DNA of 64,000 nt from Candidatus Poribacteria bacterium (GCA_012270795.1 JAAXHO010000059.1:3375-67374), one strand, 5' to 3'; shown: positions 15,920 through 32,155, numbered from the stretch's first letter. The notes: generated from the letters alone by a model not told the origin. A program made the numbers and translations.

Positions 15920-16855
15920 TTACACTTCCGATCCGTTCAATGCTTGTAAGAATGCCTCAACACCGGGTGTCTTGACTGCTGTGCGGTGAAGCTCTGTCAA
16001 ACGCTCAAGGTCTTGAATAGAATCAAGAGCAGGCTCTAGGCGTTGCACATCGCTTTGCGGAAAGCGTTCGGTTAGCACAGAATATATATTCTTGATTGCC
16101 ATTTCACGTGCAGCTTGTTGCTTAAGGTGTTCAATAAATGGAAATTCTTGCATCATGTCCTCCGATATGAGTCTTTGTAAAAAAGTTAGGTCATGCACTA
16201 AACTACTCAACGTTGTCATCGCAAACAACAGTGTGCCACGCGTCTGTGAATCAACAGGCGCGGCAACTGTCTTCTCAACACATTTTTCCAACCATGTTTC
16301 CGCGTCCATACCTTCTGGCGGTCTCATCAAAGGTGTGAAAGGTAACAATCCAACCGATGCTGCCTCCAAAAACGATTCATCTTCCAAATTCGCCAACCGA
16401 ATTACGTGATACTTATGCTGCAAACCAAAATCATCTTTTCCATAACTATAACCGCCTGGGTCGGTTTTCCCCGCATTTGGACTGAGATATATCACCACTG
16501 AATACACAGGAAGTTCATGACGTAACAGGAGTTCACTTGTGTATGAGAGCATCCGCAACGGCATCGGTTTATCTCTGCTATCCTCGGTTTGCACCTCTAT
16601 GTGAAGTAGGACTTCCTCATTGTGCCAAAGCACCTTAAATGTCATGTCATTGCGTTGCACCTTTATGTGAAGTAGGACTTCCTCATTGTGCCAAAGCACC
16701 TTAAATGTCATGTCATTGCGTTGCACCTTAACCCGTTGTTGTTCGATGTCAAGTGTTTCTAATACTTGGATATCGGGTGTGCCAAAGGATAGCATGGCGA
16801 ACTCATCGGCGTACTGGTGCATCAGATGCTTCACGATCTCATCATATTGTGCCAT
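15920..16855 (-). CDS. Rpn-family recombination-promoting nuclease / putative transposase (PDDEXK_7 + DUF4351-like C-terminus) carrying an in-frame 22 aa tandem duplication
   Basis: Motifs DMTFKVLW, HIEVQ and PLRMLSY are typical of the YhgA/Rpn family. The C-terminal helical region is DUF4351-like. A 66 bp tandem repeat is visible in the DNA. Confidence 0.65.
   Translation of the reverse strand: MAQYDEIVKHLMHQYADEFAMLSFGTPDIQVLETLDIEQQRVKVQRNDMTFKVLWHNEEVLLHIKVQRNDMTFKVLWHNEEVLLHIEVQTEDSRDKPMPLRMLSYTSELLLRHELPVYSVVIYLSPNAGKTDPGGYSYGKDDFGLQHKYHVIRLANLEDESFLEAASVGLLPFTPLMRPPEGMDAETWLEKCVEKTVAAPVDSQTRGTLLFAMTTLSSLVHDLTFLQRLISEDMMQEFPFIEHLKQQAAREMAIKNIYSVLTERFPQSDVQRLEPALDSIQDLERLTELHRTAVKTPGVEAFLQALNGSEV
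16591..16722. repeat. 66 bp x 2 direct tandem duplication (one mismatch) inside the Rpn-family gene
   Basis: Units at 16591-16656 and 16657-16722 encode the duplicated peptide KVQRNDMTFKVLWHNEEVLLHI. Confidence 0.9.
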
Positions 16856-16968: not shown

Positions 16969-19437
16969 TTATTCTTCTATTAGTTGCATGATTTCATCAG
17001 CACCGAAATTTAAAATAAATTCAGCATAATGGCTCGAAAACACATCTTTTAGGTAGGTCTTCAATTCAACATCTAATTTCGATCCGTTTTCGCTTTCCTG
17101 CACAACTTGATATTTATGTGCTTTTGTAATTGAGTACAAAAACAGTGTGTGGGCATACACAGAAGCAATATATTTCCGTTTACTGAATTCATTTTGTTCC
17201 TCGCTTGGATTTCTATTTTTTCTATGAAAATTTAGCCAAACTGTACTGTCCATGTTGATGTAAACGCGCTCTAATTTCTCACCGTTTACCATAGGATACA
17301 TTACAGTTGAGAAGTTCATCTCCTCTCCGATTGCTTCTTCAACTTGTTTCCAAGTTAATCCACCGTTTCTCTCAGGTCTTTCTTTTTCGTAAACGAGTGT
17401 TAGGCCGGGTAACCCTAAAGTTGGAATTTCTCTTTCTTCGGGTTTTGGTGCAGGCTCGGTAGGGGCTTTAGGTTCGCTAATTTTTACCCAAAATAGTTCT
17501 TTCAATTCTTCAGTAGCACCAGTCAAACTGACTTTAATTCTCACTTCGTCCCCGACATTAACAGTCTCTTTTGGGTTAAGATGAATCTTGATTGTCCCTT
17601 CTTGTGGACTGCTCTTGCTCGCATTGAATACCTCGTCAATTCTGTCAACTTGTCCAGGGGCATTTCCACCCTCTGTTTCATTTACTTTATAATCAAGAAT
17701 AGCAATCTTCAGTTCTCCAGGTTCTTCTATACGATCAAGGTAATTATTCTCCACATCCGTGTCAAATAGAATTGCTTTTTCTCCATCCTTGGGTATTGTT
17801 ACTGCCTCTTGTTCTGATTTTCCATTGGTCCTGCGTTTAAAGATTGCGGGAAATCGTTGTGGATTAAAAGGTTCAGGTTCCTTTTTCCTGCGTTTTTTCT
17901 TGGTTGAGCCATTGGCATTTTTATTCCAATTGCCTTTAGACTTCAAATCCAAATTTAATGTTTGGTCCAACAATTTCAGCAGGTCTTCGTTCCGAACGAT
18001 ATTTTTTGCAAAAGTTTTTATCAGTTCTTTTATATCTTCACTCTCAACAGTTATTGAATCTTTGCGTTGTCTGTGGATTTGTGCTAAACGTCCATTTCTG
18101 TCACCAAGTTTTTCTGCTAAATATTTTCGTAATGTCCTTGTTTCCTCACCATCTTTTAATCGGTCTCGAGATGCCATAAATAACTCTTTTCGGAAATCGT
18201 AGTTCATGTTTGTACAATCAACATGAATTAGAAGATGTTCCTTAAGTAGATTCAATTTGAGAGATCGGGTTATGAATTCCGATGTGTAATGACCATGTGT
18301 TTGCCCATTGACCGAAAATAGCACAGACATATTATTTTTGAAAAACTCTTTCCGAATTGTAGTTTTGGTCTCTTTGACGGATTTCTCATCAAGCTTTGTC
18401 TTAAAAACATAACATGTCACTTTCATTTTACCAAACAGTGCATCATCAAAATCTTCAGAAAAGCGTTTGTCAACGTATTTATAATCTTCTTGTTCTAATC
18501 TGCGTTTTAATCCATATAATCCTGTTCGTAGGGGACTCTTAGGATAACGTTTTTCATTTTCAATCGTATATACTGGTAATACAGGTTCAAATAGGTACTC
18601 ATTAATGCTCAGGTTTAAATCCCTTGAAATATCGGAGATTCCAGGTATATCGTAAGAGTATAGTTTTATGATTGACCCTGTAGTAAATTTCCTCTTGAAG
18701 AGACCTAAATCCAATTTAGCAATATCAAAAGCTGGAATTTTTTCGCCAATTTTCAAATATTCGTACCATGTATTCTTTTTTGTACTTTCCTCTGCTTCGC
18801 TTAGTGGATGCTCCCTGATAAGTGTAAAACCGAATTGTCCTGAATTGTCGAAACGTTTTGATGCGATTAATTGGTAACGTTTCTTGCCACAAAACACAAT
18901 AGCACCACTACCACCCATATTGTATTTTCCTTGCACAAAGTGAATTTCATTTTTATTTCCTCGCAATAACGACAAGAAGGTGTCTTCGAACTTTTCGGGA
19001 TGTTGTCCTTCACCATCATCATAAATAATAAGTGAGGTGTATTTTTTTGGACCATCGGCAAGAATTTGGATACTCTCTGCTTGTTCGTTTCTTGCTCCTG
19101 CCAAATCCCAATGTTTATGATTTGGAAAGAATTTCGTTCTGGCTTCTTCCATAGATTTAGGTGCTTGTGAGGATTTTGGATCAATGCCAACTTCCAGACA
19201 TTTTTTCATTAAAACAGCATCAATTGAGTTGGTGATTTTTTCAATCAGAGCGGCTATTGGAGCAGACTGTTGGTTTTCAATGACACCAAAATTATTGTCG
19301 TTGTCGCCAAGTGGATGCCAATTTTCAGGTTTGAAAATGTCCGGATAAGTATTTATGATTTTATCAAGTTCTTGCTCGGTTTGGGCAAAATATAGCTCGT
19401 TAAAAAGTTTTTTCATGTCCATTTGTAAGAAATCCAT
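16969..19437 (-). CDS. GHKL (Hsp90/MutL/MORC-like) ATPase-domain protein, 822 aa; candidate effector partner of the adjacent Ssp-like module
   Basis: GHKL N-box EKITNSIDA, G1 box DDGEG and G2 box GKYNMGGSGAI lie in the first 180 aa. A lysine/arginine-rich stretch (KKKRRKK) sits mid-protein. The gene begins 34 bp downstream of the PAPS-reductase gene on the same strand. Confidence 0.7.
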   Translation of the reverse strand: MDFLQMDMKKLFNELYFAQTEQELDKIINTYPDIFKPENWHPLGDNDNNFGVIENQQSAPIAALIEKITNSIDAVLMKKCLEVGIDPKSSQAPKSMEEARTKFFPNHKHWDLAGARNEQAESIQILADGPKKYTSLIIYDDGEGQHPEKFEDTFLSLLRGNKNEIHFVQGKYNMGGSGAIVFCGKKRYQLIASKRFDNSGQFGFTLIREHPLSEAEESTKKNTWYEYLKIGEKIPAFDIAKLDLGLFKRKFTTGSIIKLYSYDIPGISDISRDLNLSINEYLFEPVLPVYTIENEKRYPKSPLRTGLYGLKRRLEQEDYKYVDKRFSEDFDDALFGKMKVTCYVFKTKLDEKSVKETKTTIRKEFFKNNMSVLFSVNGQTHGHYTSEFITRSLKLNLLKEHLLIHVDCTNMNYDFRKELFMASRDRLKDGEETRTLRKYLAEKLGDRNGRLAQIHRQRKDSITVESEDIKELIKTFAKNIVRNEDLLKLLDQTLNLDLKSKGNWNKNANGSTKKKRRKKEPEPFNPQRFPAIFKRRTNGKSEQEAVTIPKDGEKAILFDTDVENNYLDRIEEPGELKIAILDYKVNETEGGNAPGQVDRIDEVFNASKSSPQEGTIKIHLNPKETVNVGDEVRIKVSLTGATEELKELFWVKISEPKAPTEPAPKPEEREIPTLGLPGLTLVYEKERPERNGGLTWKQVEEAIGEEMNFSTVMYPMVNGEKLERVYINMDSTVWLNFHRKNRNPSEEQNEFSKRKYIASVYAHTLFLYSITKAHKYQVVQESENGSKLDVELKTYLKDVFSSHYAEFILNFGADEIMQLIEE

Positions 19438-19471
19438 TCTATCAATTCAATCAAAATGTAATGTCAACATG

Positions 19472-20290
19472 TTACTTATGACAAATCAGACAAGGTTCCT
19501 CGTCATCCTCGTCATCGTGAACATCCGTAAGAATTTCTATCAGTCGACGATTCGGTTTTTCCTTTTTCTTGGATGCCTTCGCCTTCTCAGTCCTTGCCTT
19601 GATTTGTGCTATCCGTTCAGGTTCTGCCAATTCCTCTAAACTTTCCCCTTGACTCCACGTGAACCGTTCACCTGTCTCTGTGTTGAATTTCTCATATCCT
19701 TTTGCCAGTTCAAAGAGATCTGGATGTTGCTCTAAGAGGCCCACCCATTCAGATTTGCGTTGGAAAAAGCAGAAGTAGCAACCAGAACGCGTACGCCATT
19801 TGTAATAGTCAGGCAAACCGAGTCCGCTCTCCTCAAGGATACGGTAAACGTCCTCTTTGGTGATGCCGTCATCTTTGAATGGGTATTTAGGGAAAATGTT
19901 TTGAAGGGAGCTTATTTTAGGTGGTTTGTACCCGACACGATCCTCGTCTGCACGGATAGCGATGTAGTGATACACTTGGTCATCACCGACATATTCCTCA
20001 AAAGGTTTGATTTTGAGTTTGATGGTGCACCAACGAACTTGAGAGGATGGCAATAATCCACCGTGTAGTGTTAACCAGTGATCAAAGTCACGATCCATGT
20101 TGAGTCGTGCAATCGGTTTGCCGAGGAATGCTTCAAGCCGGTCCAAAAACTCGTATGTCTCTGGCAGTTCTTTACCGGTATCTGTGAAAAAGTATTCCAT
20201 TTCTGGTACTTTGTCGCGCATGTAGACAGCAAGTGCTGAGCTGTCTTTTCCGCCTGAAAGACCAAGTAGGTGTCGTATTTTTTGTGGCAT
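19472..20290 (-). CDS. PAPS reductase-family protein (DndC/SspD/BrxP-like ATP pyrophosphatase)
   Basis: PP-loop motif LSGGKDSS and the C-terminal CYFC cysteine pair. An AGGAG RBS lies 7 nt upstream of ATG 20290. The longest ORF extends to 20335. Confidence 0.8.
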   Translation of the reverse strand: MPQKIRHLLGLSGGKDSSALAVYMRDKVPEMEYFFTDTGKELPETYEFLDRLEAFLGKPIARLNMDRDFDHWLTLHGGLLPSSQVRWCTIKLKIKPFEEYVGDDQVYHYIAIRADEDRVGYKPPKISSLQNIFPKYPFKDDGITKEDVYRILEESGLGLPDYYKWRTRSGCYFCFFQRKSEWVGLLEQHPDLFELAKGYEKFNTETGERFTWSQGESLEELAEPERIAQIKARTEKAKASKKKEKPNRRLIEILTDVHDDEDDEEPCLICHK

Positions 20291-20325
20291 GTTGTCTCCT
20301 TTCAAATAAATTTTTATATCACAGG

Positions 20326-20754
20326 ACTTACGCATTTTCTCTTAAAGTCCCACTGATAAGGGGATTTAGAGGGTTATAGTAAAATCTATAATTAATGGGA
20401 CACTTCTGTAGCGCAAACTTTAGTTTGCGTCTCATCGGCACAAACTAAAGTTTGTGCTACAATCTCTGTTGTCCGTTATGTTTCCAAAATAGGTTTATCA
20501 AAGTGTCCTAATAATTTCAAAGTTCACTATAAATTAACCTAATTGCCACCTATGTAGCACAAACTTCAGTTTGTGCATCTGTGGAACGCAAACTAAAGTT
20601 TACGCTACAAAATATTGGCTAATTATCAGCATTTTTCACGAAAGACGGTGTTTCCATGTCTAAAACTTATAGGTAGCAACTTGGGTTATAAATAACTGAA
20701 ATAACGCCTTTTTAACCCCCTACCCCTTTATCATGGGGGAATGCGTAAGTCATG
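20326..20754. mobile_element. MITE-like element, family E: terminal inverted repeats GGACTTACGCATT / AATGCGTAAGTC with four internal 22-25 bp palindromic units (GCAAACTTTAGTTTGC type)
   Basis: Terminal inverted repeats at 20326-20341 and 20739-20754. Subterminal CTGATAAGGGGATTTAG(A/G)GGGTTA motifs. A partial copy lies at 1728-1790. Units are at about 20398-20419, 20427-20451, 20566-20588 and 20594-20620. Confidence 0.7.
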
Positions 20755-20760
20755 AAAATT

Positions 20761-23700
20761 TCACATCCTATTTTCAGATTGCTCCATCAATTTTTTTGAA
20801 ATTCGCGCCAAAATAGCAAGACGAAATTCGGAGTTTTTGTCTACATCAAGCTCATCAAAAATCTTTGTAATTGCTCGTTCTATTTTATCGGCATGTTCCT
20901 CATCAGTTAAATTAACAACTCGTTCCTGTTCGTGCTCGTTTGGTGTTGTAATGCCTATCCGAATTGTCTCACCAGATGATTTGGTGTGTTGCAGTTTTTC
21001 AAAAGAAACTGCTTCAAAATGTTGAAATTTTCTTGCAAGTTGCGAAAGGTTGATCTCAAATTGTGCTTTATCTGTGTCTATCCACGATGCAGGCGGTTTT
21101 TTGGCAAGAAAAGTGCCGATTGATTCAATCCAACCTGTGAAATCATGCCCTTCACTATAAAGATGGATTAAAAATCCTTTAAGTTGTGTCTCAATTGCCA
21201 CCTCTAACAAGGGTTCTGCTCTTGCGGCTAATTCTGCGCGGAGTTCTTCCGCTGTGGACTCCAACGTGAACGCATCTGCAAGCATCCGTTCAAGTGAGTT
21301 TAGCAGTCCTTCGTAAGCACTGCCGAGTTCAGACAATGCGTCTTGCAGTGTGTTAAAAAAGTCTGAAAGCATTTTTGAGTCTGTTGTTTCTGGACCAAAA
21401 CTTGGGAATCCGAATGCTTCGGGCAACTGTTTAAAAAGGAGTTCGTCAGGTTCACTTGCATTTTGAACAACTTTACGTAGATTTTTTGCTGCGTCACTCA
21501 ACTCCTGTGTTGTTAAAGTATATTTCGGTAGTTGCGCGATAAAACGCATCAATGGGGTGACAATTGTCAACAGGTCCGGGTTTTCAGTTTCCACAGGTTG
21601 ATTGAGCATCTTCAGAAATCGTGCAAATAGATCGGCACGGATTCCCGCCATTCGAAATCGCTTCAGTTCAAATTGTTCTGGTGCTTTAAGCAGACGTTCG
21701 AAAACTGGCGTTGACAGGTCAGCAATAAAGGAACCGTTCTCATAGAGTGCGATTTCTGTTCTGTAATGGAGGATCGCAGCACACAACAGAATAGGGAGTG
21801 GACCGCCACGGACGCCGAGTGGTGGTTGCATGAGAAATTTATAGAGATTTTCAACAGGCTGTCGCGTATCTTCACACTTGCTAAGAAACGTTTCAATTGC
21901 ATTCCAGGTGTGTTCTATTCCGTTTTTATCCTCTGCTTTTGGTGGATGGAACCCCCAAACACCTGAGGCATGACGGTGTATCCCCGTATCTAATAAGAGG
22001 GATCGGTAGATACTCATTTCAGGTGGAAACTTTTTGATACCGAGATTCTCTTTGTCCCCATTCTCAAGCATGGCTTGAATTAATTTTCTGCGTGCGTTTG
22101 TCGCAGCACCAGATATTTTGCGACGATTGATAAGTTCATTTCGTATGAGAGGCGTTTTGTGGAAAACCTTATCACATATTTTTGACAAGTATGCGTTTCG
22201 GGCACGTTGCGAGTTAATATTTACCGTTTCACCGTTGCAATACCATGAACAAGCATCTCCATTGTTTCCACTAAAAATTGTTGTTAACTGGTGAGATATA
22301 TTTCGCTCTGCTGCAATCTGATGCATTGAGAGTTCACGTCTTGCGACCGCATCACCTTCAAGTTCAAGCGTGTTGTCCGCAATCCACTGTAAGTGGACGA
22401 GTTGCATAACTGCATCGTCCAGAAAACCGGTGGAATGCGGAATCGCAATTAATACCTTTTTGCGATTTTCAGTATCAATGTTACTTGCCTTTTTAACGAG
22501 CTGCTTAACCTCATATTCGTTTGCAGGCAAAGTATAGAGGATAAGTCCGTCTGCATCATCAAGTGGGGCTGTGAGGGCTACATCAAAGTTTTCTAAATCA
22601 GTGTAGCGAATAGTGAAGTAACGTAGGGTACCGGTTTGGTATAAATGTCGCTTTGCAACAAGCGGGGGGGGCACGTTACGTGATAGATCTATAACGAGTG
22701 ATACTTTTGTGCCAACGTGCGCTGCTGCCTCACGGAGTTTTGCCGCAATGTCAATGTCGCTGCCTTCCCACAGCGCGTAAGTTTTGTTATATGTACGGTA
22801 GATAACAATTGAACGGTTTTTCAGTGTCCCAAGTGCATCTTCAAATTCGGTGGCAAATCCTGCTGTGTTATCGTCAAGTGCGTAACGTAGCAATTGCTCT
22901 GAGGCTTTCAGGTTAGGAATTGGTTCGCTAACAATGCTGAGTAGCCCGATGGTTTTTATCAGTTTAACCGTCATTTCGGAAGGGTCTGGTAGTTGCGTTA
23001 TTGCGGTTTCAATCTCTATCCATTTTTTGCTGTTGCTTGAAATATAGAGTTTATTGCCCTGCGTGGTACCAAGGTAGTCGTATAGGTCAGCGAGCGAAAA
23101 CATCGGTAGACTGTCACCGTCATAATGTTGGTTTGCAAGGAAGTCTTGTAACCCGTTCGGTGCACTTGAGCTGAGAAAAGCGAAGAGGGAACGTTCATTT
23201 TGTCCGAATCGGCGGAAAAGCGGGCCGATGAGGAGTGCTACTGTCGGATGCAGCGGCAGACAATCTTTCAAGAGTTGGATAAATTCATGATTGTCAAGTT
23301 GACGCGGTTTAAGTCCTAATTCGGTAGCGGTGTTAAGGTTTTCCCTGCAAACAATCTCTGCAGGTTTTTCAAGTGCAGCACCGACTAAACGGAGTACCTG
23401 TTCGGTAGGTTCTGCAAATGCCACATCTTCAAATCTTCCTTGCACCTTTGCCCACTCTTCGCGTTGTGATTGCGCGGTACGCTGTGCATACACCTCAAAA
23501 GCTTGGTGGAGGATAGTCATGAGAAATAGGGGCGTTTGCTTGCTTCTGTCTGCTAATTCCGCAAGGTTCTGTAGGATAAACATATCCCCTTGTGTTGGGT
23601 GTTGCGTAGCGTATTCCAGAAACTTACCGAGTTCGTCAATCACGAGCAGCAGTCCCGCACCTCCCGAATCACAAATTTCGTGCGTTGCTAATTCAAACAC

Positions 23701-24246
23701 ACGCGCAACTTCAGAGGCAGGTGGTAAGGTGTCATTTTCTGCTTTTTCCAACAAATTATTGAGTTCTTGAAGGAGAGAAATAGAGAGTTGTGTACTGTTG
23801 GCAGCGGTGAGTCCGCGTTCTAAACCGCGCAAAAGTGCAAGCGAAAGAGGGGCGCGTTCGCCAGAGATAAGCACGGGACAGAATCCAGAGGGTGTGTGCT
23901 TTTCGTTACCGTTTGTGCTGATGAATCGCTCATATAACGAAGCATCTCCACGTTTGAGTATTTCTAAGGCGTGTTGTGTTGTCGGGGCATTAGGTTTGCC
24001 AAGCAATTTTGCAGCGAAAAGTGCGAACGCTGATTTTCCTGACCCATAGGGGCCGGTGAGTGTCCATGCTTTAGATGTTGCTTCATTTTCAAACGTTGAA
24101 ATAACACGCGATAACATTTCCCGCGCGGTGGCGGTTAAAATGTATCCATCAAGCACGTTTTCTGTGTAAAAGTCGCGTTCAAGATGTACTGAACGCCGAA
24201 AACGTCCTTGGACATGGAAAATATCTGAAAGCGGAATGTCATCCAT
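20761..24246 (-). CDS. large P-loop ATPase (1161 aa), SspC/BrxC(PglY)-like
   Basis: Walker A TLTGPYGSGKSAF at about residue 60 and Walker B LLLVIDELGKF at about residue 200, followed by a long alpha-helical C-terminal region. Its ATG overlaps the stop codon of the upstream DUF4007 gene (ATGGATGA). Confidence 0.7.
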   Translation of the reverse strand: MDDIPLSDIFHVQGRFRRSVHLERDFYTENVLDGYILTATAREMLSRVISTFENEATSKAWTLTGPYGSGKSAFALFAAKLLGKPNAPTTQHALEILKRGDASLYERFISTNGNEKHTPSGFCPVLISGERAPLSLALLRGLERGLTAANSTQLSISLLQELNNLLEKAENDTLPPASEVARVFELATHEICDSGGAGLLLVIDELGKFLEYATQHPTQGDMFILQNLAELADRSKQTPLFLMTILHQAFEVYAQRTAQSQREEWAKVQGRFEDVAFAEPTEQVLRLVGAALEKPAEIVCRENLNTATELGLKPRQLDNHEFIQLLKDCLPLHPTVALLIGPLFRRFGQNERSLFAFLSSSAPNGLQDFLANQHYDGDSLPMFSLADLYDYLGTTQGNKLYISSNSKKWIEIETAITQLPDPSEMTVKLIKTIGLLSIVSEPIPNLKASEQLLRYALDDNTAGFATEFEDALGTLKNRSIVIYRTYNKTYALWEGSDIDIAAKLREAAAHVGTKVSLVIDLSRNVPPPLVAKRHLYQTGTLRYFTIRYTDLENFDVALTAPLDDADGLILYTLPANEYEVKQLVKKASNIDTENRKKVLIAIPHSTGFLDDAVMQLVHLQWIADNTLELEGDAVARRELSMHQIAAERNISHQLTTIFSGNNGDACSWYCNGETVNINSQRARNAYLSKICDKVFHKTPLIRNELINRRKISGAATNARRKLIQAMLENGDKENLGIKKFPPEMSIYRSLLLDTGIHRHASGVWGFHPPKAEDKNGIEHTWNAIETFLSKCEDTRQPVENLYKFLMQPPLGVRGGPLPILLCAAILHYRTEIALYENGSFIADLSTPVFERLLKAPEQFELKRFRMAGIRADLFARFLKMLNQPVETENPDLLTIVTPLMRFIAQLPKYTLTTQELSDAAKNLRKVVQNASEPDELLFKQLPEAFGFPSFGPETTDSKMLSDFFNTLQDALSELGSAYEGLLNSLERMLADAFTLESTAEELRAELAARAEPLLEVAIETQLKGFLIHLYSEGHDFTGWIESIGTFLAKKPPASWIDTDKAQFEINLSQLARKFQHFEAVSFEKLQHTKSSGETIRIGITTPNEHEQERVVNLTDEEHADKIERAITKIFDELDVDKNSEFRLAILARISKKLMEQSENRM

Positions 24247-25246
24247 AATATCTCTCTAAAGGTAGCATCGGATTATAATCTCTATAGCGATAGACCTGCT
24301 TTAAGTCAGCGGTTTCGTCGTACTGCAACGCACCATCGGTGAGTTGTTCAAGCTTTTCAAGATATATCGTCATCGTGTCTTCGTCTAATTTAAAAATGCG
24401 TCCGGGACTTAATGGGGCGTACATCAGTTCTGTAAAAGGTAGTGCGTCTTTTTCGGAGAAACGCGCATCCCAAAAGGCGATGAGTGTTGCTGTCACAACC
24501 TCAATTGGCAACGTCTCTTTTTCGCCGCGCTGGAATTCATACATGCCGCTATCTGGCAATTCGGTGATGAGGTTAAGTTCAACGAGTGGACAGTCAAACG
24601 TATCTTCCACTACGTCAGCGTTATGGCGTGATTGGCAGTAGGTTCGGATAAAGCAATTGACATCTCGCTGCATCGTATTCTCAGAAAAAGTACGCATAGA
24701 TTTTTTCTGCTGTTTTGCCCATTCGTACAATTCTTCCGTGAATGCTGTACGAACAAATTGATTTTTCTTTAAGATATTAAATGCCCAATACCATGCTGTT
24801 GCCTGATTGATGTTCGTTGCGATCTGCCAATGGATTAACCACAAAGTGGCAGGATCATCCAAGTATGGGTCAAATCCGTTTTTGTCGTTAAAAATGGCGT
24901 TACCGAGTGTAGTTGGAACGAATCGCCCCTGTTGATAACCATCTACCTTGATGAGTCTTGCTACACGACACCAATGCCGAATAGAATCCACCATATTTTT
25001 TCCGACACCTAAAATTACAGACGCGTACTCTGAGGAAAAGATCGTTGAATCATCTGTTACAGCATCAACCCCCTTTTTTAGCCATGTATACCGAAACGGA
25101 AAGGTTTGGTGACCAGAAAAGGACGGATTGATTATATACGGAGTAGCTGTATGTTCTGCAAGTAGTAGGTTTTCCATACAAATTATTATACCATACGCGC
25201 AACAAAAATGGCAATACATCTTAACAAAAAGTGCAGATGAATTCAA
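24239..25246 (-). CDS. DUF4007-like protein (SspB-like)
   Basis: Near-N-terminal motif FSGHQTFPFRYTWLKKG is characteristic of DUF4007 (recalled from memory). The true start is probably the internal Met at about 25177 (MENLLLAEH...). There is an 8 bp overlap with the ATPase gene. Confidence 0.55.
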   Translation of the reverse strand: MNSSALFVKMYCHFCCAYGIIICMENLLLAEHTATPYIINPSFSGHQTFPFRYTWLKKGVDAVTDDSTIFSSEYASVILGVGKNMVDSIRHWCRVARLIKVDGYQQGRFVPTTLGNAIFNDKNGFDPYLDDPATLWLIHWQIATNINQATAWYWAFNILKKNQFVRTAFTEELYEWAKQQKKSMRTFSENTMQRDVNCFIRTYCQSRHNADVVEDTFDCPLVELNLITELPDSGMYEFQRGEKETLPIEVVTATLIAFWDARFSEKDALPFTELMYAPLSPGRIFKLDEDTMTIYLEKLEQLTDGALQYDETADLKQVYRYRDYNPMLPLERYYG

Positions 25247-29476: not shown

Positions 29477-32155
29477 CTATTTATTCTGTTTTGAAAGAAG
29501 TTTTGCGACTTCGTCCCTGCCAGTTTTTACTTTTTTCTCGTCTATTTTCAACTTTAACAGTCCCACAACAAACTCTGTTATTCCCCAGTCGATTTTGGTA
29601 ACGCTCAAGGGTGTCATACCATCATTTTTTTTGAGGCTAATATCTGCCCCTTTCTCAAGTAGTAGTTTTGCTGTTTCAGTACGTCCAAGGAATGCTGCAG
29701 CATGCAACGCTGTAGAACCGTCCCTATGTCGGTTATTGATTTTTGCCCCTTTTTCAAGTAGCAATTTCGCTGCTTCTGTCTGCCCATTTAGTGCTGCCCA
29801 ACCTAAAGGATCTATTCCAAATTGTGGGTCAAGTGCTTCAATATCTGAACCGTTTTCTAAAGCAGTCTTGATAGCAGGCAGATCACCATCCGCAGCTGCT
29901 TTCCACAAATTTTGGGATTGTGAAGGATTATTCTTCTCATAAGCAGCGATTAGTTTTGCAATTTCTGCTCTGCCCGTTTCCACTTCTTTTCTATCAACTT
30001 CAATTTGGATAACATTGAGAATAGCTTGTGTAATTCCCCAGTCAAGTGTTGTATTATCCATAGCAGATCCACCTGAGTGATTACGCACATGAACATCTAC
30101 ACCATGTTTCAAAAGCAATTTCGCCGCTTCCGTACGTCCTAAAAATGCTGCAGCATGTAAGGTTGTGTTACCATCCCTATTTACACCATTAACATCTGCC
30201 CCTTTCTTCAATAAGAATTCCATGATGTCTGTATGTCCCATCAACGAAGCAATAAATAGCAAGGGATCTCCCGACTGTGGATTCCGCGAATTCACATCCA
30301 ACCCATCAGCGATTGCCTTTTCTACTTTCTTTAAATCACCGGTAAAAGCGGCTTCCCAAACCTCGTTTGCAGCACCTTGTGGTTCTGTAGAATTTGTGTT
30401 TCTGAGTAGCTCAGCAACTTCCTTTCTACCTGCTTCTACCTCCTCCTGTTTCAAATCTATATCAAACATGCTTGTCATGAACCTAAGCATACCCCACGGC
30501 AGATATAAACCGCTTGCGGGTGTAGCACCACCATGATTTTTGGCATTAACATCTGCCCCGTTATCAAGAAGAAGTTCAGTAAGTTCAACACGACCTAAAG
30601 TAACAGCAACATGTAAGGGAGTTCCCCCATCCTCTTGTCGGACATTGACATCCGCACCGAGTTTGATAAGCAATTCTGCAGCTTCTGTGTGTCCCATCAT
30701 CGTTGCCCAGGTTAACGGAGATAAATGTGTATCGTCTGAAAGTGCATCAATCTCTGCGCCTTCGGCAATGTAACGCTTGATACCATCAAGGTCACCGAGA
30801 CGGGCAGCCCCCCACAAATTGTCTTCCGGTAATTCAATAAATTGTTTCATAAACTTTCCATCAAAACCATCAGGTCCCATCACGATTGGCGGGTGTGGTC
30901 GTCTTCTCCATTCAGGCATACCATCACTTATCTCTTCTAAAATCTTACTCTTACGAGTTCTGATAAATTCCCGCACTTCATCTAACTTCTCTTCAAAAGC
31001 AATCGTTTCGCCTCTACCCCATCCCTCATTTTCTTTAATGGTTCGTTGTGAGGGTATCATATGCGGTTGAATCATCGTAGAAATTCTATCTAATTCAGCA
31101 AAGAGCTTAACTTCGTTCCAATGGTTTTCAAGTATATCTATCATCGTCTTTGCATACCGTTCTTTACCAGCATCAAGTTGATAAAGTCTATAAGCAATTA
31201 AGCCTTGTGTCTTTACCGAAATTGGCGCGTTAGTTTTTCTCCCCATATTCTTCATATCAAAGTTTGAGAACAACGCATCTGCACCCCAAGGCAAGAAGTG
31301 AAACTTGTCTGTTTCAGGATTTAGATAGACAAAGAAATTATTGTTGTTCCCAGAATAACCATCCCAGAAACCGAGTAATCCTTCTATTACCCAAAATCGG
31401 TAGAAACTATCTAAATCAACAAACTGACCGATGGTCTTTTCACTTACTTCATCAGCCGCTAACACATTAATTAACCCTTTTATTTTTTCTCTCCCGTGTT
31501 TATCTTTACCTCTCTTGTGTTCAAAACTGTTCTCCCAATCCTTATAGAAATCTACCACTGAACCTTCATATAAGGTGCCGTCGTCATCACCAAAAGCACG
31601 CTTGAGTATAGGTTTTCGCATAGTCTCCACATGCGAATATATACCTAAGTTCTTACCATTCACTGTAACCTTCGCATAACCACAACGTGGTGCAGGAGAA
31701 CCGATTGCGTTGAACAACGCATATCCCAAAAACTGACTGACATGCGTTACATCTTGTTGATTGTTATTCAGTGTTAGGTTGGTCAATCCTTCTATTCCGC
31801 CTTTTTTGTCTACATGGTTCAACTTGATCTTGAGGGATGGACGCGATATACTCTGTGAACCGATGAAACCTTTCTTGCGGATTCCGACTTTCGGGAACTC
31901 TACCCCGTCAATACTTACACTTGCATCAACGTAGGTATACGGATGCTCTGGTGGTGCAAACTGACGGGACTCGTTCAGTACATCCATAAAACCCCGTGAC
32001 TGAATCCGTATCTTGTTCCAATCCCGTTGTGAAACAGTTATCTGTATATCTAAAACCCGGTCGCTTGGGAATATATCGTCCAAAGTCAATTCCTTTGCAT
32101 CAATGTTTCCGACACAAAGTATCGTTGCAAAACCTACTATCCATTTGATCATCAT
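29477..32155 (-). CDS. secreted CotH-kinase-like protein with C-terminal ankyrin repeats (892 aa)
   Basis: Signal peptide, then a CotH domain (first roughly 400 aa), then at least 9 ankyrin repeats (TPLHxAxxxGxxExxxLLLxxGADVN). Confidence 0.8.
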   Translation of the reverse strand: MMIKWIVGFATILCVGNIDAKELTLDDIFPSDRVLDIQITVSQRDWNKIRIQSRGFMDVLNESRQFAPPEHPYTYVDASVSIDGVEFPKVGIRKKGFIGSQSISRPSLKIKLNHVDKKGGIEGLTNLTLNNNQQDVTHVSQFLGYALFNAIGSPAPRCGYAKVTVNGKNLGIYSHVETMRKPILKRAFGDDDGTLYEGSVVDFYKDWENSFEHKRGKDKHGREKIKGLINVLAADEVSEKTIGQFVDLDSFYRFWVIEGLLGFWDGYSGNNNNFFVYLNPETDKFHFLPWGADALFSNFDMKNMGRKTNAPISVKTQGLIAYRLYQLDAGKERYAKTMIDILENHWNEVKLFAELDRISTMIQPHMIPSQRTIKENEGWGRGETIAFEEKLDEVREFIRTRKSKILEEISDGMPEWRRRPHPPIVMGPDGFDGKFMKQFIELPEDNLWGAARLGDLDGIKRYIAEGAEIDALSDDTHLSPLTWATMMGHTEAAELLIKLGADVNVRQEDGGTPLHVAVTLGRVELTELLLDNGADVNAKNHGGATPASGLYLPWGMLRFMTSMFDIDLKQEEVEAGRKEVAELLRNTNSTEPQGAANEVWEAAFTGDLKKVEKAIADGLDVNSRNPQSGDPLLFIASLMGHTDIMEFLLKKGADVNGVNRDGNTTLHAAAFLGRTEAAKLLLKHGVDVHVRNHSGGSAMDNTTLDWGITQAILNVIQIEVDRKEVETGRAEIAKLIAAYEKNNPSQSQNLWKAAADGDLPAIKTALENGSDIEALDPQFGIDPLGWAALNGQTEAAKLLLEKGAKINNRHRDGSTALHAAAFLGRTETAKLLLEKGADISLKKNDGMTPLSVTKIDWGITEFVVGLLKLKIDEKKVKTGRDEVAKLLSKQNK

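Follow-up and report, generated by a model that had tools for sequence, protein, structure and literature searches.

The 64,000-nucleotide stretch of Candidatus Poribacteria bacterium DNA analysed here (GCA_012270795.1, JAAXHO010000059.1:3375-67374), referred to below as the window, carries four co-directional genes on its minus strand between positions 16,969 and 25,246. By their profile matches, three of these genes are sspB, sspC and sspD of an Ssp DNA-phosphorothioation (PT) system, and the fourth encodes an ATPase of the GHKL fold, whose relation to the other three is the main subject of this study. Open reading frame (ORF) calling on the window reproduced the four genes where a preliminary description, made from the sequence alone, had placed them, including the 8-bp overlap of the DUF4007-like gene with the 1161-aa ATPase gene and the 34-bp spacing between the PAPS-reductase gene and the 822-aa GHKL gene. 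The four genes are as follows.

24239-25246, minus strand: sspB; the longest ORF encodes 335 aa from a TTG codon, and the likely start is at 25177 (312 aa).
20761-24246, minus strand: sspC; 1161 aa, an ORC/Cdc6-type AAA+ ATPase, BrxC-like.
19472-20335, minus strand: sspD; a PAPS-reductase-type ATP pyrophosphatase, 287 aa at its longest, with the likely start at 20290 (272 aa).
16969-19437, minus strand: Ssp-associated MORC/MutL-like GHKL ATPase; 822 aa, the conserved fourth gene.

The shorter start of sspB at 25177 is supported by the gene call in an identical 84-kb ENA metagenome contig, and the start of sspD at 20290 agrees with the gene call in that contig. The overlap of sspB and sspC spans 24239-24246, the distance from sspC to sspD is approximately 425-470 bp, and the stop codon of sspD is followed after 34 bp by the ATPase gene.

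The 335-aa protein matches Pfam DUF4007 over model positions 1-288 of 288 (E 9.9e-87) and the PADLOC model of SspB with E 2.9e-99; SspB is described as a DNA-binding subunit with three helix-turn-helix or winged helix-turn-helix modules. The 1161-aa protein is matched by 13 PADLOC models of SspC, the best of which scores 1126 bits over residues 13-1079, versus 647 bits for the best BrxC model, and its sequence contains the Walker A motif GPYGSGKS and the Walker B motif LLLVIDELGK. The sspD product matches the PADLOC SspD model end to end (E 1.8e-119, versus 1.2e-08 for the BrxP model) and Pfam PAPS_reduct (PF01507) with E 2.7e-10, and carries the SGGKDS loop. The proposals in the preliminary description of a DUF4007/SspB protein, an SspC-type ATPase and a PAPS-reductase/DndC-like protein are thus upheld by very strong matches, the last of them as SspD.

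A cysteine desulfurase gene had been reported as absent, and searches of the 64 kb by tblastn with SspA sequences from relatives likewise gave no SspA. This does not exclude membership of the Ssp family, because IscS encoded elsewhere substitutes for SspA in known systems (PMC8092258, PMC13251355). Characterised SspBCD systems write PT with IscS as the desulfurase (PMC8092258; PMC13251355), and in E. coli 3234/A the desulfurase is supplied in trans by IscS (PMC13251355). The same type of tblastn search, with sequences from relatives, gave no DUF262, GIY-YIG, DGQHR, SspE or other Ssp-associated gene elsewhere in the 64 kb. When ten ORFs around the cluster were compared with PADLOC, the only matches were those of SspB, SspC and SspD and ankyrin-driven matches on a CotH-ankyrin protein; SspE was not among them.

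The 822-aa protein had been recognised in the preliminary description by its GHKL boxes, and these are invariant in 60 homologues: the N box (E66-x3-N70-x2-D73), the G1 box (D140-x-G142-E-G144) and the G2 box (G170...G175-G176-x-G178). The Pfam HATPase_c_3 model (PF13589) scores 21.7 bits for the window protein, where the cut-off is 25, and many close homologues have a precomputed PF13589 match. No match was found in PADLOC, NCBIfam or PHROGs, nor among PDB sequences with either the single sequence or a 60-sequence family profile. In public sources the homologues are labelled only as 'hypothetical protein' or 'ATP-binding protein'. The predicted structural model divides the protein into the following parts.

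18148-19320, minus strand: GHKL ATP-binding and S5-type transducer domain, residues ~40-430, with the invariant motif FMASRDRLK (420-428) at its end.
17848-18147, minus strand: helical linker and low-confidence Lys/Arg-rich stretch with the sequence KKKRRKKEPEP, residues ~431-530.
17473-17847, minus strand: immunoglobulin (Ig)-like beta-sandwich domain, residues ~530-655.
16972-17412, minus strand: C-terminal alpha/beta domain with an unmatched fold, residues ~676-822, with conserved N728, D730, S731, Y761 and H763.

In the model, the N-terminal ~430 residues, with the catalytic boxes intact, structurally match MORC3, MutL and SMCHD1. The best match is MORC3, with a structure-match figure of 13.3, followed by the N-terminal domain of MutL (11.8), SMCHD1 (11.7), MORC2 (10.8) and Topo VI-B (9.9). 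According to this prediction, the N-terminal half is the GHKL and S5 module of DNA-manipulating ATPases. The predicted local distance difference test score (pLDDT) falls below 50 at residues 462-483 and 493-522. A separate model of residues 520-822 (pLDDT 78) is matched only by Ig-like beta-sandwiches, at residues ~530-655, and the last ~150 residues gave no structural match.

The ATPase belongs to a large family, comprising 2,623 clusters at 90% identity, the best 120 of which are 73-100% identical to the window protein; in a library clustered at 50% identity, 1,823 representatives match with E < 1e-3 and 565 with E < 1e-30. The nearest relatives of the gene are in Candidatus Poribacteria genomes, and the poribacterium of the window is accordingly most likely one that lives with sponges. 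The genome loci examined are the best 80 matches to the window ATPase and not a census; their genes were called as simple longest ORFs, and the neighbours were annotated by phmmer and clustering. The pairing of the GHKL gene with a PAPS-reductase module, which the preliminary description had pointed out in the window, is general in this sample: all 53 loci with at least 9 kb of flank on both sides have SspB, SspC or SspD within 10 kb, and in each of the ten loci that lack Ssp genes a contig end truncates the sequence. The linkage spans more than ten phyla, the loci coming from Poribacteria, Bacteroidota, Gammaproteobacteria, Alphaproteobacteria, Chloroflexota, Myxococcota, Verrucomicrobiota, Ignavibacteriota, Gemmatimonadota, Latescibacterota and Balneolales, and it is repeated for the core family in an independent metagenome set.

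Two layouts are found. In the first, which includes the window and occurs in Poribacteria and others, the genes are co-directional in the order sspB-sspC-sspD-(0 to 3 genes)-ATPase; Ensifer and Devosia plasmids have the same layout, with ATPases 47% and 43.5% identical to that of the window. In the second, found in Bacteroidota and others, an (sspA)-ATPase unit is convergent with sspD-sspC-sspB, with 1 to 5 genes between them, and in ten Bacteroidota-type loci the ATPase gene follows sspA on the same strand at a distance of 9-77 bp. At two loci (L046 and L043) the ATPase gene lies on the opposite strand between sspD and sspC, which breaks the usual sspB-sspC-sspD order.

It might be supposed that the ATPase gene is an independent single-gene defence or repair gene of the paraMORC type, merely co-localised with Ssp genes in defence islands. 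Defence genes cluster in general, and divergent members of the family are solitary or have unrelated partners (Pontibacillus, Haladaptatus, L096 and L100). This explanation is disfavoured and is regarded as very improbable in view of the 53 of 53 linked loci in more than ten phyla, the operon-like spacing to sspD or sspA and the significant co-inheritance with SspBCD given below. The setting of the window also stands against it, as the flanks of the cluster are housekeeping genes and not a defence island; the remaining window is ordinary chromosome with ilvD, a TAXI-TRAP binding protein gene, ribokinase, birA, trpCD, dnaJ, ffh, cytochrome bd, tig, clpX and lon.

The gene content around the four genes varies from locus to locus. 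Among 107 loci with the ATPase, SspC and SspD, 99 (93%) carry at least one recognised cassette, located between or beside sspD and the ATPase gene and differing in content; the cassette families were defined by clustering, and representatives only were checked against Pfam and PADLOC. The cassettes consist of SspE; a short DUF262-HNH protein; a DUF262 protein with a Ser/Thr kinase; a ~165-aa protein with GIY-YIG-like motifs together with a DndB-like DGQHR protein; an AAA ATPase triad; a histidine-kinase-like double-HATPase protein accompanied by two partners; another MORC-like protein, shorter than the first; a large DGQHR protein; or an Mrr-like protein. The GIY-YIG label is a reading of sequence motifs, the ~165-aa protein having no Pfam or PADLOC match. 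SspE and the ATPase co-occur in L002, L020 and L027. One DUF262 family (c4), which includes ~370-aa DUF262-only and ~435-aa DUF262-HNH forms, is found in 35 of the 107 loci, and the kinase in 19. The commonest cassette combines a DUF262-only protein of ~370 aa, similar to NsnA and PD-T4-2_A, with a ~316-aa Ser/Thr kinase similar to PD-T4-6 and mad6, and lies between sspD and the ATPase gene in L034, L042, L048 and many Bacteroidota-type loci.

A direct comparison is provided by three Poribacteria loci, the window (with its ENA contig L001), L012 and L022, which share the downstream flank of an Rpn-like gene, ribokinase, a gene for a 957-aa tetratricopeptide repeat protein and BirA. The order is B-C-D-ATPase in the window, with no cassette, B-C-D-[DUF262-HNH]-ATPase in L012 and B-C-D-ATPase-[GIY-YIG][DGQHR] in L022. 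The four genes thus form a constant core, with exchange of cassettes around it, and what the window carries is this core in its bare form. At this shared chromosomal site the upstream flanks of the three loci differ, and SspB and SspC fall to 49-77% identity while SspD is ~90% identical; the site resembles a hotspot of recombination in which the specificity subunits diversify.

The GIY-YIG and DGQHR pair also occurs with SspABCD but without the ATPase, alone on Roseobacter pROLI83 and together with an SspFGH-like trio on Rhizobium pTiK1_93. The cassettes are thus partners of Ssp in their own right. The preliminary description had named the GHKL protein as the sole candidate effector. The word effector over-reads the evidence, since 99 of the 107 related loci have the ATPase together with nuclease-type cassettes. 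The ATPase looks more like a conserved core component than like an effector.

A core component could act on either side of the system. The main rival explanation is that the ATPase is a modification-side accessory, that is, a MutL- or topoisomerase-like clamp for the loading or scanning of SspBCD, for the handling of the SspB nick or for the control of PT density. The mean pairwise identity is 59% for the ATPase (minimum 47%), 56% for SspD, 37% for SspB and 34% for SspC, values that reflect in part the selection of the loci by the ATPase; the ATPase is as conserved as SspD and far more so than the specificity-type SspB and SspC, as would be expected of such an accessory. The position of its gene directly downstream of sspA on the same strand in the ten loci mentioned above, and downstream of sspD in the window, points in the same direction, as do the lack of a nuclease domain and the constancy of the ATPase beside variable nuclease-type cassettes. 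However, the ATPase is inherited with SspBCD more loosely than these are with one another: its pairwise distances correlate with those of SspC (Mantel rho 0.59) and SspD (0.48) with p = 0.001, whereas the distances among SspB, SspC and SspD correlate with rho of 0.79-0.86.

Plasmids also bear on this explanation. SspC homologues are carried by 68 plasmids, 3 of which carry the core ATPase and 65 of which do not, and the closest plasmid relatives of SspC, which are cyanobacterial, have other partners. Because 65 of the 68 plasmids lack the ATPase and the published SspBCD systems write PT with IscS only (PMC8092258; PMC13251355), the ATPase is probably not needed for PT writing in general. Two plasmid loci with SspBCD and no GHKL gene, on a Trichormus plasmid (L171) and on Roseobacter pROLI83 (L173), carry a trio of a DEAD-box helicase, a ~610-aa ATP-binding protein and a PLD-family protein, which may be another uncharacterised Ssp partner module; the Trichormus locus also has a 'DNA phosphorothioation-associated putative methyltransferase'.

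Family members that are more remote from the ATPase, with 25-40% identity, are not linked to Ssp genes. Some of them are solitary; others adjoin DNA methyltransferase genes on three haloarchaeal plasmids (Halogeometricum, Natronobeatus and Halarchaeum), a DndB gene in Rhodococcus, the gene of an NgoFVII-type restriction endonuclease in L092 and that of a PLD-helicase-DUF3427 enzyme in L097. The pairing of these relatives with methyltransferases and restriction nucleases, and not with sulfur-insertion genes, is a further point against the modification-side explanation, which we regard as rather unlikely. A role on the restriction side is favoured because the distant relatives are situated in the restriction-modification (R-M) context described for MORC and paraMORC proteins (PMC2292703). 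On the Halarchaeum plasmid pCBA1220-03 (L090, 5260-17451), a 25%-identical GHKL relative of 910 aa heads a gene cluster for a helicase-related protein (1270 aa), a hypothetical protein (651 aa) and PLD-like proteins. A DNA cytosine methyltransferase gene diverges from this cluster, whose layout resembles that of DISARM, the GHKL protein taking the position of DrmE. PADLOC gave no match for the 25-29% identical haloarchaeal and actinobacterial relatives, including this protein at the DrmE position.

The absence of a cassette from the window can also be explained by loss. In this case the locus would be a remnant without defence function, consisting of an orphan epigenetic PT module and a leftover ATPase. 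The high frequency of cassettes among the related loci agrees with such a loss, as do the cassettes found at the corresponding site of the syntenic L012 and L022, the repeat-rich insertion between sspC and sspD described below, and a 66-bp duplication in the neighbouring Rpn-like gene, which hints at a locus in flux. On the other hand, all four genes are full length and every family-invariant residue is kept. In addition, the bare four-gene layout with housekeeping flanks is found in two unrelated lineages, an argument for maintenance of the unit. All four genes recur in L106, where the ATPase is 52% identical and gyrB-recF-dnaN-dnaA lies immediately downstream, and L154 has sspA, sspC, sspD and an ATPase 46% identical, followed by metabolic genes, with sspB not detected. 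On balance, a remnant seems improbable, more so than an accessory on the modification side.

In the preferred explanation, there is a widespread and undescribed Ssp DNA-phosphorothioation subtype, of which the locus is the bare core and in which the ATPase acts on the restriction side as a MORC/MutL-like clamp or matchmaker; we assign it a probability of roughly one half. On the identities of the genes, the fold, the conservation and the linkage given above, we infer that the locus would write PT, that the ATPase would sense it and that the whole would serve in defence. By homology, SspB (DNA-binding and nicking), SspC (AAA+ ATPase) and SspD (sulfur-inserting) would write single-strand PT marks on the host chromosome, with sulfur presumably provided by a housekeeping IscS-type desulfurase encoded elsewhere. 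The ATPase would dimerise on ATP binding, clamp DNA and respond to its PT status. It would then either block or immobilise unmodified invading DNA on its own, or act in the manner of MutL, which licenses MutH and UvrD, by recruiting the interchangeable nuclease cassettes and licensing them. In the window, which has no cassette, any defence would have to come from the four genes alone. A sequence-independent role on DNA would be in keeping with the slow, SspD-like evolution of the ATPase and with its being only weakly coupled to SspB and SspC, which evolve fast.

Several points weigh against this explanation. The 80 loci were picked by similarity to the ATPase, which inflates the apparent conservation. 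The ATPase evolves about as slowly as SspD and far slower than typical defence effectors, and its co-transcription with sspA would fit a modification-side role equally well. Nearly all related loci carry a recognised cassette, and the occurrence of the GIY-YIG and DGQHR pair without the ATPase means that cassettes do not need it. The full-length model of the ATPase is of moderate quality, with a pLDDT of 70. No nuclease fold or motif and no known PT-binding domain was found in the ATPase, so that PT sensing by it is purely conjectural.

A more specific form of the restriction-side explanation is that the ATPase is a nuclease-free executor of PT immunity, a bacterial MORC-like clamp that reads the mark in the DNA backbone and spends ATP on entrapping or compacting unmarked, invading DNA or on licensing an adjoining nuclease cassette, and hence a third major class of Ssp partner. 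We offer this as a tentative suggestion, with the odds against it. If it is true, the ATPase would stand beside SspE and SspFGH as a prokaryotic equivalent of epigenetic silencing by MORC proteins, linked to PT instead of methylation.

The preliminary description had also not recognised the GHKL protein as a described PT-restriction partner. This agrees with its position outside PADLOC and NCBIfam, its dissimilarity to SspE, SspF, SspG and SspH, and the literature searched, in which no GHKL, MORC or HATPase_c_3 protein was found to be linked to Ssp or other PT systems; a mention in the original 2020 description of Ssp is possible. No Ssp-GHKL/MORC link is given in comparative reappraisals of PT and BREX systems (PMC10853773; PMC12839542) or in a survey of PT in gut microbiomes (PMC12914056). 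A 2026 paper of the laboratory that discovered Ssp recognises no Ssp effectors besides SspE and SspFGH (PMC13251355). The ATPase is probably a new partner of the Ssp anti-phage system. The idea that MORC-like ATPases serve R-M dates from 2008, and what is new here is the proposed Ssp subtype with a dedicated MORC/MutL-like core component.

Phosphorothioation systems are, to our knowledge, the only DNA-backbone epigenetic defence. The family described here is large and conserved, and adjoins SspBCD in many phyla, among them Bacteroidota associated with gut and soil and Poribacteria that are sponge symbionts. Provided that it is functional, it would add a MORC/MutL-type ATPase to PT immunity, give a reason why many SspBCD loci are reported without SspE, and provide a natural core with swappable cassettes for studying how one mark is coupled to different nucleases. 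The four-gene locus of the window is the simplest natural version, which current detection tools would miss or score as incomplete.

Two further features lie within or at the upstream end of the gene cluster.

20336-20760, no strand: sspC-sspD spacer; probable MITE-like insertion with palindromes and inverted repeats.
25185-25214, minus strand: promoter-like site (TTGCCA, 18 nt, TG-TATAAT), close upstream of the sspB start at 25177.

The spacer is ~425 bp long, compared with 10-90 bp in most relatives. Within it the 22-nt palindrome GTAGCRCAAACTTNAGTTTGYG occurs four times, arranged as two inverted pairs; the search gave five matches versus 0.02 expected. A 15-nt inverted repeat, at 20322-20336 and 20740-20754, bounds these copies. 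The repeats were found neither elsewhere in the window nor in the 82 other loci compared. Judged by these repeats, the insertion is probably an element resembling a miniature inverted-repeat transposable element (MITE), and the operon may be split by it. The repeats, which occur in the window spacer only, are neither a CRISPR array nor any known regulatory site. The promoter-like site matches 11 of 12 consensus positions; this is a consensus match alone, and the number of such sites in the region is no higher than in shuffled sequence.

Downstream of the ATPase gene, the Rpn/YhgA-like gene (15920-16855, minus strand) was rejected as a nuclease partner, because it has its own perfect sigma-70-type promoter (TTGACA-18-TATAAT) and belongs to the conserved downstream flank of the window, L012 and L022 whatever their cassettes. 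It is also found downstream in L027, where the genes beyond it differ, and its product gave no match in Pfam, NCBIfam, PADLOC or PHROGs. This gene, a putative PD-(D/E)XK gene, contains the 66-bp tandem duplication at 16589-16729 (2.1 copies, 98% identical), which repeats 22 aa including a putative D...E-x-Q core; the duplication is not present in the ENA contig L001, where the copy of the gene is otherwise identical over the aligned stretch. On the other side of the cluster, at 29477-32155 on the minus strand, lies the gene of an 892-aa protein in which a CotH kinase domain precedes many ankyrin repeats. Its PADLOC matches, PDC-M72A and Ankyrin, are repeat-driven, and ankyrin-rich proteins are typical of sponge symbionts.

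Among the known systems, SspABCD-SspE (Vibrio cyclitrophicus FF75, E. coli 3234/A) has in common with the window the order of SspB, SspC and SspD, with genes that overlap or are adjacent. It differs in having SspE, a DUF262 GTPase with an HNH/DUF1524 nuclease, which the window lacks and in place of which the 822-aa GHKL ATPase follows sspD. SspABCD-SspFGH is similar in that an alternative restriction module is set on the same SspBCD writer and can be combined with SspE (PMC8092258). In that module SspF has a Walker A motif and SspH resembles FtsK-type translocases (PMC8092258), whereas the window protein is a single GHKL-fold ATPase without a P-loop. From these published features, its identification as SspF, SspG or SspH was rejected, the content of SspF, SspG and SspH models in the PADLOC release being unchecked.

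BREX type 4 had been noted as a resemblance in the preliminary description. This stands as far as homology is concerned, since the BrxC-like ATPase, the PAPS reductase and DUF4007 are homologous to SspC, SspD and SspB (PMC12839542), and no core nuclease is obvious in either. In BREX type 4, however, the PAPS reductase is usually fused to DUF4007 (BrxP), whereas these are separate genes in the window. An assignment to BREX type 4 was rejected, as no PglZ or BrxL was found in the 20 window ORFs tested (ten around the cluster and ten other large ones), a scan that left out the remaining window ORFs of at least 250 aa. Apart from the housekeeping Lon beside tig and clpX, the window has no Lon-type protein.

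From MutL, the window ATPase differs in having no MutL C-terminal dimerisation or endonuclease domain, no sequence similarity to PDB entries and no link to MutS. MORC and paraMORC GHKL ATPases have been described in R-M systems by Iyer, Abhiman and Aravind (2008, PMC2292703). No assignment of the window ATPase to the named paraMORC1-5 families was achieved. It shares with these proteins the GHKL and S5 module, intact catalytic motifs and a genomic tie to a DNA-modification system. It differs from them in its C-terminal half and in its partner, which is the phosphorothioation machinery in the window and a methylase or SF2 helicase in theirs.

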